Positions 1 through 3,448 of a stretch of 64,000 bases of DNA are shown here, one piece after another. This stretch comes from Candidatus Marinacidobacterium sp. (GTDB lineage: Bacteria > Acidobacteriota > Vicinamibacteria > Marinacidobacterales > Marinacidobacteraceae), in NCBI GenBank assembly GCA_965204755.1, contig OZ242011.1:3584001-3648000 (forward strand), in the 5' to 3' direction. The notes under the pieces were generated by a model. The model saw only the letters and a program-made list of their open reading frames with translations, did not search any database and was not told where the DNA came from. The position numbers and the translations under genes are program-made. Position 1 is the stretch's first letter, and every line of letters begins with the position of its first letter.

Positions 1-104
1 AATGCGGCAGCGTCCCGAACCGCCGGGCCGCCGCCCGCGCGGCGGAGCGGGCGCGGCCCTCGGACGAAGACCTCACGCCGCGCGCTGCGACTCGGCGCGC
101 AGGG

Positions 105-533
105 TCAGTCCTCTTCGGCGCCCGGATAGACCCGTTCTCCCTCGTAGTCCCTCAGACCGCAAAAACCGGTGACTTCGAATCCGTTGGACTGGAGCATCTC
201 CGCGGCACGCGCGGCTCTTCCTCCGCCCTGTCAAGCGGTGAGGATGGGAACGCCGGTCGGCAGTTCCCCCATCCGGGCCTCCAGTTCGTCGATCGGGATG
301 TGGACGAACCCGTCGAGGGTTCCGTGTTCGGCGAGTTCTTCGGGGGTCCTCACATCGAGGAGCAGCGCGCCGCCGGCGAGCGCGGCGTCGATGTCCGCCG
401 CTTCGACGCGCGGAGCGGGCGCCGGTTCCGGCTCTGCCGCGGGCTCGCTCGACGACGACTCTTCGCCACCGCCCCCGCCGCAGGCGAGGGAGACGCCGAC
501 GAGGCCGGCGGCGAGGGGAAGAAGACTGCGCAT
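105..533 (-). CDS. Rhodanese-like lipoprotein, probable selenoprotein (TGA at 233-231 read as Sec, residue 101 of 142)
   Basis: ATG at 533; lipoprotein-like signal MRSLLPLAAGLVGVSLA-C; rhodanese motifs LLDVRTPEE and HIPIDEL. Frame continues past the TGA as ILTA-U-QGGGRAARAAEMLQSNGFEVTGFCGLRDY...EED, stop at 107-105. UxxGxR matches the rhodanese CxxGxR loop. Confidence 0.88.
191..224 (-). promoter_or_regulatory. Putative bacterial SECIS hairpin of rhodanese 1
   Basis: After the UGA: GGAG...CCGCG-CGUGC-CGCGG...CUCC. The apical loop begins 22 nt after the UGA with G then U at loop positions 2-3. Confidence 0.65.
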
Positions 534-597
534 GGGGAAACCCTCCCGGGTGAGACTCGACTCGTGTTTCGGCCGAACGGCGTCGCGGCGCCGCGGG

Positions 598-942
598 TTA
601 TTCCGGCAGCGGCCGGTACTCGCGGCGGCCGCGGTAACTCTTGAGGCCGCAGAAACCGCGCACCTCGAAACCGGCCCGCTCCAGGATCGCCGCGGCACGC
701 GCGGCCCGGGGGCCGACCATTCAAGTGGTCAGGATCGGGCGGTCCCGCGGGATCTCGTCGGCGCGCTCGGTCAACTCGTCGAGACCGATGTGGAGCGCGC
801 CCGGGATCGTTCCCGATTCGGCGAGTTCCACCGCCTGCCGCACATCCAGCAGGACGACTTCGCCGCCCGCCAACTGGCCGTCTATCTCGTCGGCCGGAAC
901 GAAGGGGGCGCGGGTTCCGAACATGCGGCCGACGATCGCCAT
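598..942 (-). CDS. Rhodanese-like protein, probable selenoprotein (TGA at 723-721 read as Sec, residue 74 of 114)
   Basis: LLDVRQAVE, GTIPGALHIGLDEL, then PILTT-U-MVGPRAARAAAILERAGFEVRGFCGLKSY..., TAA at 600-598. The post-TGA part is homologous to that of the neighbouring paralog. Alternative start ATG at 924. Confidence 0.88.
673..714 (-). promoter_or_regulatory. Putative bacterial SECIS hairpin of rhodanese 2
   Basis: GGCCC...GCCGCG-CGUGC-CGCGGC...GGGCC. The core GCCGCGCGTGCCGCGG is identical to that of rhodanese 1 and at the same offset (+16) from the UGA. Confidence 0.65.
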
Positions 943-997
943 CGCGCGCCGCCCGTCCGGTCTCTCGCGCCCGCCCTCTCTCTCGTCCGGTTCCGCC

Positions 998-2173
998 CTA
1001 GGCGGCCATCTTCTGCGCGGAGTCGAGCACCGCCGCGAACGCCTTGGCGGCGCGCTGCATCTCGTCCATCGTCCCGATGGAGATGCGGCAACGCGTCCAC
1101 AGTGGCGGGAACGGCCGTCCCACGCGGACGCCTTCGGCGGCGCAGGCCGACTGGAACTGCTCCACCGGCATCCCCACATCCGCGAAGATGAAGTTCGTCT
1201 GCGCGTCGGTGGCCGAGTAGCCGCGGTCGCGGAAGAACTTCAGGATGAAGTCGCGCGCCTCGGCGTTCCGCTTCTTCTCGTTGGGGAGGAAGTCCGGGTC
1301 CTTCCGGTCGCGGTCGAGCGCCGCGTTGGCCGCCACCAGCGAGAGCGTGCTCACCGTGTTCCCCATGTGGAACTCGCGCAGGTGGGCGATGGTGTCCTCG
1401 TGGGCGATGGCGTAGCCGACGCGGAGGCCGGCCATGCCGTAGGCCTTCGAGAAGGTGCGCGCCACGATCACCCGCGGGTTGTCGAGCGCCAGCGGGATCA
1501 TCGTCTCGTGGCCGGGCGTCGTCACATAGTCGATGTACGCCTCGTCCACGAGGATGCGGAGGTCCTTCTCCGTATCGAGCGCCCGGTTCAGGAAGTCCCG
1601 CCCATCGGTCGGGTCCACCAGCGTCGCCACCGGGTTGTTCGGGTTGCAGAAGAAGAGCATCCCGCTGCCCTTGACTGCGTGGAGCGTCTGGTCGAGGTCC
1701 ATCTTGAGTTCGGAAGTCAGCGGAACCGCCTTCGTCCGATACCCCATGAGCGCGGCGTAGCCGAAGCACTCTTCGTAGGTGGGGAGGGAGCCCACCAGCG
1801 CCTTCTCGGCGCTTGCGTACTGGTGGGTGACATTCACCAGGATCTGCGTCGAGCCGGCGCCGATGAGGACATTGCCCGGCTTCACGCCCCACTTCTCGGC
1901 GATGGCTTCCTGCATCGGGCCGACGAAGCGGAACGGGTACCGGCCGGCGATCGTCCCCTCGGGGCCGATGACGGCGTCCACGGCGTCCATCACCGCTTCA
2001 CCGGGGCCGAGCGAGTTCTCGTTGTTGGCGAGGTTGATCGCGTCTTCGGGCGCGATGCCCATCTCGGCGGCGAAAGCGACCTGCTCGCGCAGGCGGGAGC
2101 GGACCAGGGTCGCCGCGTAGAGGCCGGCGGCGCCGGCGGAAGCGCGGTTCAGGAAACTGCGGCGGGAAAACAT
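998..2173 (-). CDS. HisC-like class I/II PLP aminotransferase with Tat signal
   Basis: MFSRRSFL twin-arginine motif; NNENSLGP, FCNPNNP, VDEAY, RTFSKAYGMAGLRVGY (PLP Lys). Confidence 0.9.
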   Translation of the reverse strand: MFSRRSFLNRASAGAAGLYAATLVRSRLREQVAFAAEMGIAPEDAINLANNENSLGPGEAVMDAVDAVIGPEGTIAGRYPFRFVGPMQEAIAEKWGVKPGNVLIGAGSTQILVNVTHQYASAEKALVGSLPTYEECFGYAALMGYRTKAVPLTSELKMDLDQTLHAVKGSGMLFFCNPNNPVATLVDPTDGRDFLNRALDTEKDLRILVDEAYIDYVTTPGHETMIPLALDNPRVIVARTFSKAYGMAGLRVGYAIAHEDTIAHLREFHMGNTVSTLSLVAANAALDRDRKDPDFLPNEKKRNAEARDFILKFFRDRGYSATDAQTNFIFADVGMPVEQFQSACAAEGVRVGRPFPPLWTRCRISIGTMDEMQRAAKAFAAVLDSAQKMAA

Positions 2174-2251
2174 GGTCGTTCCTCCTCGGGGGCGAACGGG
2201 ACGGCGCGGTGTCCGGGGCGTCGGCGGGAAAGCGGGAAAGGGGAGCGGGCC

Positions 2252-3448
2252 TTACTGCTGCTGGTTGTCGGTGGTCGCCAGCCCGAGCACCTCCGCGAAG
2301 ACCGCGGTCGCGCGCTGCATCTCCTCGAGCGTGCCGATGGAGATCCGGGCGTGGCTGTTCTCGTAGGGCGGGAAGTCCCGGCCCACCATGATGCCCTTCT
2401 CGGCGCAGGCCTCGCGGAAGGACTTGGCGCTGCGGCCGATGTCCACGAAGATGAAGTTCGTCTGGCTGGGCACCGGGTCGAGGCCGTTGCTCGAGAAGAA
2501 GTCCAGCGTGAACTGCCGGGCGGCGTCGTTCCGCTTCACTTCGTTCCGGATGTAGTCCGGATCCTCGAGCGAGCCCATCGCCGCGGCGATGGAGAGGATC
2601 GAGGTCCCGAAGGTGAGCGCCAGCGGCGCGAGCCGGGCGATCGTGTCCTTCTGGCCGTAGGCGTAACCGACCCTGAGACCGGCCATGCCGTACGCCTTCG
2701 AGAAGGTGCGGCCCACGAACACATCGCGGTACTTCATGGCGAGGCCGGCGCCGGTCTCGAACGACTTGTCGGTCACATAGTCGTAGTAGGCCTCGTCGAG
2801 CAGGATCGCCGTGTAGGGCGACTCCTTCTTCACGAAGTCCACGAAGTCGGTCACATCGGCGAGGCTGTGGATGGTGCCGGTGGGGTTGTTCGGGTTGCAG
2901 AGGAAGACGAGCCCGGCGCCCATCGCGGCCCCGGCCATCTTGTCCAGGTCGAGGCCCAAACTCCCGGTGTTCGGGACCGCCTTGACCGGCGCGCCGAAGT
3001 ACTCGGCGGCGCGCTTCGGGCTCTCGAAGGAGCAGGTGGCGGTGACCAGCGGGCGGCCCTTGCCGGTGTACACCCGCACGGCGTTCCGGAGGATCTCGGA
3101 GGAGCCGGGGGCGAGCACCACATTCTCGGCGCCGCCGCCGTACATCTCCCCGAGGCGCTTCCGCAGGTCGTTCCCGCTGATGCGGGCGTTCATCGGGTAG
3201 CGCATGATGGAGCCGTACTCGCCCCGGAGCGCCGCCACCGCCGCCGGGCCGGGGCCGAGCGGGTTCTCGTTGCTGCTGATGCGCACCTCGTCCGCCTCGG
3301 GGGGCGGCACGAACACCGGGGCCTCGCGGAAGCCGTTCGCGGCCTCCCAGGCTTCCCGTCCGCGGGCGCCGATGGCGTGGAGCGCCGCCGGGGAAACGGC
3401 GGGGGCGCCGGCGGCCAGACTCAGAAAGCGGCGGCGGTTCGATTTCAT
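2252..3448 (-). CDS. HisC-like class I/II PLP aminotransferase with Tat signal (paralog)
   Basis: MKSNRRRFL; SSNENPLGP, LCNPNNPTG, LDEAY, RTFSKAYGMAGLRVGY. Confidence 0.9.
   Translation of the reverse strand: MKSNRRRFLSLAAGAPAVSPAALHAIGARGREAWEAANGFREAPVFVPPPEADEVRISSNENPLGPGPAAVAALRGEYGSIMRYPMNARISGNDLRKRLGEMYGGGAENVVLAPGSSEILRNAVRVYTGKGRPLVTATCSFESPKRAAEYFGAPVKAVPNTGSLGLDLDKMAGAAMGAGLVFLCNPNNPTGTIHSLADVTDFVDFVKKESPYTAILLDEAYYDYVTDKSFETGAGLAMKYRDVFVGRTFSKAYGMAGLRVGYAYGQKDTIARLAPLALTFGTSILSIAAAMGSLEDPDYIRNEVKRNDAARQFTLDFFSSNGLDPVPSQTNFIFVDIGRSAKSFREACAEKGIMVGRDFPPYENSHARISIGTLEEMQRATAVFAEVLGLATTDNQQQ

Follow-up and report, generated by a model that had tools for sequence, protein, structure and literature searches.

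In the window, the 64,000-nucleotide stretch of a Candidatus Marinacidobacterium sp. genome that we analyzed, two adjacent rhodanese open reading frames each appear to end at a TGA codon placed where the catalytic cysteine would be expected. The first-pass annotation had proposed that they are two selenocysteine (Sec) enzymes which standard annotation would truncate. The locus thus raises two questions: what the two products would be if the in-frame TGAs are read, and whether they are in fact read as Sec. The features that bear on the first question are as follows, from the upstream gene (gene B) to the downstream one (gene A).

598..942, minus strand: gene B, a single-domain rhodanese predicted to be cytoplasmic; 114 residues if the TGA is read, with Sec as residue 74
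721..723, minus strand: predicted Sec codon TGA of gene B, opening the U-MVG-P-R active-site loop
649..651, minus strand: Cys98 of gene B (FCG, Sec+24), present in the window copy and Ser in 21 of 27 orthologues
598-600, minus strand: terminal stop TAA of gene B, read from the sequence
541..547, minus strand: GGGAGGG, judged Shine-Dalgarno-like from its sequence, 7 nt ahead of the start codon of gene A
105..533, minus strand: gene A, a lipoprotein rhodanese predicted to be exported; 142 residues if the TGA is read, with Sec as residue 101
480..533, minus strand: predicted signal peptide and lipobox of gene A, MRSLLPLAAGLVGVSLA-C18, ahead of a linker rich in Gly, Ser, Glu, Pro and Ala
231..233, minus strand: predicted Sec codon TGA of gene A, opening the U-QGG-G-R active-site loop
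159..161, minus strand: Cys125 of gene A (FCG, Sec+24), the second cysteine, which is conserved and may partner Sec
105-107, minus strand: terminal stop TGA of gene A, the second TGA of the gene

Gene A reads ...VPILTA-TGA(233-231)-QGGGRAARAAEMLQSNGFEVTGFCGLRDYEGERVYPGAEED and continues for 41 codons past the in-frame TGA to its terminal TGA; gene B reads ...RPILTT-TGA(723-721)-MVGPRAARAAAILERAGFEVRGFCGLKSYRGRREYRPLPE and continues for 40 codons to its TAA. With the TGA taken as a residue, the loop contexts become ...VPILTA-U-QGGGRAARAAEMLQSNGFEVTGFCGLRDY... and ...RPILTT-U-MVGPRAARAAAILERAGFEVRGFCGLKSY..., and the two read-through products share 57% identity over 98 residues (E 6e-33). Both match the Pfam Rhodanese family PF00581 (cut-off 22.2 bits) in a single stretch that spans the TGA, gene A with 37.1 bits up to residue 119 and gene B with 46.8 bits up to residue 93. 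In alignments to rhodanese domains of known structure, 3icr and 4ocg among them, the TGA of each gene falls on the catalytic Cys; the family profile aligns to solved rhodanese domains through position 96 of 105. The resulting loops, UQGGGR in A and UMVGPR in B, are of the six-residue C/U-x-x-G-x-R type, which differs from the seven-residue loop of Cdc25/Acr2. The first-pass annotation had placed the TGAs exactly at the catalytic Cys and had described about 40 further codons of mutually homologous sequence that complete the fold, and the alignments bear out both statements. At 231-233 and 721-723, no difference is listed for contigs that span both TGAs in four further public runs from four studies, indicating that the TGAs are not assembly errors.

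The pair recurs within the family to which the organism belongs. Both paralogues are present in 26 of 27 other same-family genomes, and the sole genome without a match is 89% complete and contains withheld bases. A Cys following a hydrophobic N-terminus was found in 25 of 27 gene A orthologues by pattern and in all 27 by eye. By this pattern match and inspection, gene A most likely encodes a lipoprotein. In the wider family most members carry either a lipobox or an ordinary signal peptide. The N-terminus of gene B, in contrast, has about 10 residues ahead of the domain, with neither a hydrophobic stretch nor a signal peptide, and this opposition of a lipoprotein copy and a copy with no signal, pointed out in the first-pass annotation, recurs wherever the pair is present among same-family genomes (27 of 27). 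The two genes are separated by a 64-nt spacer that holds the GGGAGGG stretch. B-type sequences group in a single clade (SH-aLRT 99) that is confined to the window's family, and their rate of evolution is roughly double that of A (dN 0.17-0.20 vs 0.09); the tree, with 95 columns and many open forks, did not locate the origin of this clade. Only one further rhodanese gene is present in the window genome, a two-domain Cys form.

A second tandem Sec rhodanese pair occurs outside the family but within the order, in one genome (G052; locus L168, G052:C212), at about 1500-2100 on the minus strand. Here the lipoprotein copy comes first and the no-signal copy second, the opposite of the order in the window, and both copies fall outside the B clade in the tree. 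That a lipoprotein and a no-signal copy are again paired in another family, in reversed order, hints that the pairing is selected rather than accidental. Copy number can also be higher: a 10.2-Mb relative (G045:C1) has six Sec-rhodanese copies, two of which (L169, L170) lie about 15 kb apart on opposite strands and differ by two residues within the N-terminal part compared, with no other difference, which suggests a recent inverted duplication.

We then considered the second cysteine, which the first-pass annotation had described as shared by the two proteins and as a possible resolving residue. Its conservation holds for the A type: the FCG Cys at Sec+24 is kept in 27/27 A orthologues, in 30/30 other genomic Sec forms, in 63/71 metagenomic Sec forms and in 5/7 Cys forms. 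Among B orthologues it is found in only 6 of 27, the other 21 having Ser, and since most B orthologues have lost it, it is not a feature common to the pair. In solved rhodanese domains the position of Cys125 corresponds to the GG motif after the last strand, a motif that adjoins the active-site loop in the rhodanese fold.

Among solved structures, the best matches are the rhodanese domains of CoA-disulfide reductase and NADH-dependent persulfide reductase (3icr, 3nta, 4ocg, 8a56), with E values of about 1e-10 for a single sequence and 4e-20 for the profile, and their active-site Cys aligns with the Sec of genes A and B. These domains are C-terminal parts of flavoproteins of about 570 residues, whereas the domain of genes A and B stands alone. 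In that respect the two proteins resemble PspE (2jtq), GlpE (1gmx) and the Sud polysulfide-sulfur transferase (1qxn), each of which consists of a lone rhodanese domain, roughly 100 residues long, whose active-site loop has six residues; the E values of the family profile against these three structures are 4e-10 to 4.5e-8. PspE, GlpE and Sud have a Cys nucleophile and GG where the family of genes A and B has Sec and F-C-G. PspE and Sud are periplasmic and GlpE is cytoplasmic, and E. coli thus combines an exported PspE with a cytoplasmic GlpE in one organism, as is predicted here for genes A and B. To our knowledge, none of the three is a lipoprotein.

By analogy with Cys rhodaneses, we infer a sulfurtransferase cycle with a selenolate nucleophile as the biochemical role. 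The selenolate would attack a sulfane-sulfur (or selenium) donor to form a Se-S adduct, comparable to the persulfide of Cys rhodaneses, which would then be passed to an acceptor. The gene A product would act outside the cytoplasm, exported and lipid-anchored via the lipobox Cys18, which a low-complexity linker follows, and the gene B product would stay in the cytoplasm. In the exported type, a selenenylsulfide between Cys125 and Sec would probably serve as a protected, resting or resolving state. A bolder version, in which exported A is an envelope-anchored selenium redox centre running a Sec101-Cys125 selenenylsulfide cycle and cytoplasmic B is its inside counterpart in a two-compartment sulfur/selenium relay, is speculative and in our judgment improbable.

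The main competing view of the chemistry is that the Sec enzymes are not sulfurtransferases but selenol/thiol oxidoreductases, which would, for example, form or reduce disulfides or reduce oxyanions in the envelope with Sec...Cys(+24) as the redox centre. The distribution of the second Cys, conserved throughout the exported type of the family and in nearly all other Sec forms and mostly lost in the cytoplasmic B, speaks for it, as does the fact that the solved relatives closest in sequence (3icr, 3nta, 8a56) are rhodanese domains of CoA-disulfide/persulfide reductases. More generally, a 2022 review states that most predicted selenoproteins resemble thiol oxidoreductases (PMC9312934). On the other hand, the active-site loop is of the six-residue rhodanese type, U-x4-R, most B orthologues do without the second Cys, and no redox partner gene is conserved nearby. 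We therefore regard an oxidoreductase role as unlikely, if deserving of serious attention, and favor sulfurtransferase chemistry.

The genes surrounding the pair are of little help in choosing a substrate. At 998-2173 and 2252-3448 on the minus strand lie two class I/II aminotransferases in tandem (PF00155, E about 1e-44), which begin with twin-arginine-like signal peptides (MFSRRSFLNRASAGAAGL... and MKSNRRRFLSLAAGAP...); exported pyridoxal phosphate (PLP) aminotransferases, if that is what the genes at 998-3448 encode, would be unusual. On the other side, an Amidohydro_3 protein (window 1-76, minus strand, running past the window start; L058:3-1469) is encoded in a different frame, with its start 29 nt downstream of gene A; its N-terminus, ...ALALAAASGC-GG, resembles that of a lipoprotein. 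Among 138 other loci, an upstream aminotransferase was found in 3 and a downstream amidohydrolase in 2, and these genes accompany the rhodanese pair only within the same genus. A Pfam search of 58 flanking ORFs from 12 loci, in which many ORF calls had no family and, the flanks being GC-rich, some frames may be wrong, revealed no recurring partner. As the neighbors are not conserved beyond the genus, context is no guide to the substrate. At one of the 12 loci examined, on a metagenome contig, a class-V aminotransferase (PF00266) of the cysteine desulfurase/selenocysteine lyase type is encoded directly upstream of the Sec rhodanese (L131:1142-2281, plus strand). DNA nearly identical to window positions 60-1000 is present in runs labelled marine metagenome and sponge metagenome, among others, from which the organism appears to be marine or sponge-associated.

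Whether the TGAs are read as Sec can be approached from the decoding machinery, the homologues, selection past the TGA and the RNA itself. The window genome, a single 3.98-Mb contig that is 89% complete, encodes selB (286 bits), selA (474.6 bits) and selD (245.8 bits), all above curated cut-offs, and the same contig carries a tRNA-Sec (71.8 bits, above cut-off) whose anticodon is TCA according to ARAGORN. No RNA run carrying the stretch with genes A and B was found.

Homologues show the same codon at the same column. Exactly one in-frame TGA is present in all 78 matches with E <= 9.2e-23 from 61 related genomes, and it occupies the Sec codon in 27/27 A orthologues and 27/27 B orthologues. In a phylum sample of 401 genomes, 43 have a match at E <= 1e-12; all 36 matches with E <= 4.4e-16 contain one TGA, and of 11 weaker rows 2 contain a TGA and 9 none. 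These genome tallies include two unpublished genomes, G036 and G107, on which alone no claim hangs. Metagenomes extend the set: a first contig search with gene B as query returned only 4 loci, and of the 80 loci eventually collected 78 could be parsed by pattern, with TGA at the column in 71 and TGC/TGT in 7. Taken over all parsed Sec-type homologues, from 60 related genomes and 71 metagenome contigs, the codon is TGA in 155 of 155 and never TAA or TAG. The protein database holds full-length Cys forms as well (P0004, P0010, P0027), and in the 95-column tree Cys forms branch among Sec forms, with one Cys form falling in a clade supported at SH-aLRT 99. The gene A orthologues contain an internal control, since their terminal stop is TGA in 11 of 27 and TAG or TAA in 16 of 27 while the Sec column is TGA in all 27.

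We measured selection across the 27 orthologue sets, taking codons +12 to +35 as the downstream part, which lies beyond the hairpin described below. Downstream of the TGA, dN/dS is 0.18 for B and 0.10 for A, compared to 0.16 and 0.13 upstream, values that indicate purifying selection on both sides of the codon.

In the proposed mechanism, the UGA would be decoded by SelB with Sec-tRNA(Sec), and SelB would be recruited by a short GC-rich hairpin whose apical loop starts 21 nt past the UGA. A candidate SECIS hairpin of this kind is present in both genes.

689..705, minus strand: predicted SECIS hairpin of gene B, with a 6-bp stem GCCGCG/CGCGGC and loop CGUGC, in the A-A-R-A-A codons
200..215, minus strand: predicted SECIS hairpin of gene A, with a 5-bp stem CCGCG/CGCGG and loop CGUGC, and a lower stem in the 45-nt fold

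The two genes share the 16-mer GCCGCGCGTGCCGCGG, which provides the codons for A-A-R-A-A, and gene B adds a sixth pair. In both, the apical loop starts 21 nt past the UGA; the core energies are -7.8 (A) and -9.9 (B) kcal/mol, and those of 45-nt segments are -19.2 (A) and -17.5 (B) kcal/mol. The bacterial model (bSECIS), as given in a figure legend of a 2026 review (Fig. 2A legend, PMC13188914), has an apical loop of 3-9 nt, an upper stem of 4-16 bp, a G at loop position 1 or 2, a UGA-to-loop distance of 16-37 nt, and an MFE <= -7.5 kcal/mol. With 5-nt loops, stems of 5-6 bp, a spacing of 21 nt and a sufficient MFE, both hairpins satisfy this model, and the loop G is invariant at position 2, followed by U or G.

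We examined the hairpin further in 127 distinct 48-nt sequences drawn from the 155 Sec-type genes. The core reaches -7.5 kcal/mol or lower in 105 of the 127. Pairing is found in 95.9% of 635 cells, against 22-76% when the 3' partners are slid, a control that favors the hairpin because it was defined from the same sequences used to test the pairing. Changes on both sides of a pair occur in 17 cells, compared to 1.4 in shuffles, at two of the five pairs (C:G to U:A, and G:C to C:G or A:U). In the 113 rows encoding AARAA, third-position entropy at the five hairpin codons is 0.25-0.46 bits, compared to 1.47-1.87 bits at nearby invariant Gly, Arg and Leu codons. The hairpin is thus written into the codons of an invariant A-A-R-A-A, so that RNA pairing and peptide both limit how this stretch can change. 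In Cys forms the codons vary, the peptide is often altered (RAAKGA, RAGRAA) and the closing pair is broken in 5 of 7; these forms still pair in 77.1% of cells, a weak contrast given n=7 and the contribution of GC-rich Ala codons to pairing.

Other searches were less favorable to the hairpin. RNAalifold on 127 rows and 48 columns did not recover it and gave only two unrelated pairs at -0.15 kcal/mol; single-sequence MFE z-scores of the 67-nt stretches past each TGA were +0.20 and -0.50, no better than shuffles; and an Rfam scan of window positions 1-1200 at E <= 10 had no match. The 16-mer occurs exactly 2 times in the genome, in genes A and B, and a reversed control pattern occurs 3 times; with the control the commoner of the two, the rarity of the 16-mer alone proves nothing.

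Several loci outside the window show variants of this arrangement. The second copy of the pair in L168 has the hairpin with a compensatory U:A pair. Several more distant Sec members (L081, L083, L085, L086, L157, L160, L162, L151-L154 and L166) are without the CCGCG/CGCGG hairpin; they have the peptide RA[SAE]RAA or RARRAA and, in the same place, other GC-rich palindromes such as GCGCG..CGCGC, which are probably a second SECIS variant. In one set of metagenome contigs, a Cys copy (L161, TGC) has close Sec orthologues (L163 and L165, TGA); its hairpin stretch is preserved apart from one mismatch and an Ala-to-Gly change, which suggests that Sec gave way to Cys recently and that the SECIS is now decaying.

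Two further alternatives concern the decoding itself. The UGA could be read through outside the Sec pathway, by near-cognate insertion of Trp or Cys or under a reassigned code, with the hairpin doing no more than slowing termination; we consider this very improbable, as the complete Sec pathway is present, the TGA alternates with Cys codons only, TGA also works as a normal terminator in these very genes, and the hairpin fits the bSECIS model in its loop, G position and spacing. Least probable of all is that the TGAs are real stops in truncated or split genes followed by relic frames: standard annotation does end at the TGA, with 38 of 51 database matches only 70-77 aa long, and single-sequence folding is no better than shuffles, but the codon never varies to TAA or TAG in the 155 homologues, dN/dS downstream stays at 0.10-0.18, Cys homologues are full length, and a 73-residue product would lack the active-site loop together with the final portion of the fold.

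Together these lines of evidence indicate that the in-frame TGAs of genes A and B are almost certainly read as Sec. The first-pass annotation had named three places to look in the sequences, namely alternation of TGA with Cys among homologues, the Sec machinery of the genome, and conservation past the TGA, and each of them, joined by the SECIS-type hairpin, speaks for two Sec enzymes; its expectation that standard annotation truncates such genes was also borne out by the database entries. With high confidence, the best explanation is that genes A and B encode genuine selenoproteins, predicted single-domain rhodaneses with Sec as the catalytic nucleophile in a U-x-x-G-x-R loop.

The novelty of these proteins is smaller than the first-pass annotation held. 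Sec rhodaneses have been predicted since 2005, in a table of PMC1088965 and by Zhang & Gladyshev 2005 as cited in PMC13188914, and a single-domain form of COG0607 is listed in the 2022 review PMC9312934. The 2026 review PMC13188914 describes five rhodanese selenoprotein forms, two of which (forms 2 and 4) have a UxxG motif, with MBM9537886.1 and MCY3690685.1 as representatives. These share with genes A and B the PF00581 domain, Sec at the catalytic Cys position and the UxxG motif (UQGG and UMVG here), a likeness judged by descriptions of domain and motif in the excerpts at hand; like genes A and B, they were predicted by bioinformatics. Sec rhodaneses with a UxxG motif are accordingly already known, and genes A and B are predicted further members. 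The pairing of a lipoprotein with a cytoplasmic copy, the Cys at +24 and a SECIS within an invariant AARAA go unmentioned for the UxxG forms in those excerpts, and our literature search on Sec rhodaneses and selenoproteins in Acidobacteria/Acidobacteriota, which covered main texts, found nothing specific to this subfamily.

We also compared the pair with two named families. Rhodanese_LYCAU (NF041203, form 3) is, like genes A and B, a rhodanese-domain selenoprotein, but its motif is CxU, with Sec two residues after a Cys, whereas in genes A and B Sec replaces the Cys and no Cys stands two residues before U. Gene B scores 25.1 bits against the cut-off of 115 for this family, and no match is listed for gene A. 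TsoB (NF045694, form 5) combines a UxxxxU motif with a DsbD-like fusion; genes A and B have one U per protein and a single domain, and the family is absent from their NCBIfam matches with E <= 0.01.

The tandem Sec rhodanese pair does not overturn current knowledge. It corrects annotation, as nearly all copies of these genes in public protein sets are cut to 70-77 residues, and it makes visible a widespread family, present in 43 of 401 sampled genomes of the phylum and on many soil, marine and sponge metagenome contigs. The compact and well-supported SECIS, with its 5-bp stem and CGUGC loop, could improve selenoprotein finders for Acidobacteriota. Should the two-compartment relay prove true, the invariant RAARAA would illustrate plainly how an RNA signal can freeze the peptide in whose codons it lies. 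Finally, a predicted exported, lipid-anchored Sec enzyme with a conserved partner Cys would offer a tractable model for what selenium contributes to rhodanese chemistry.
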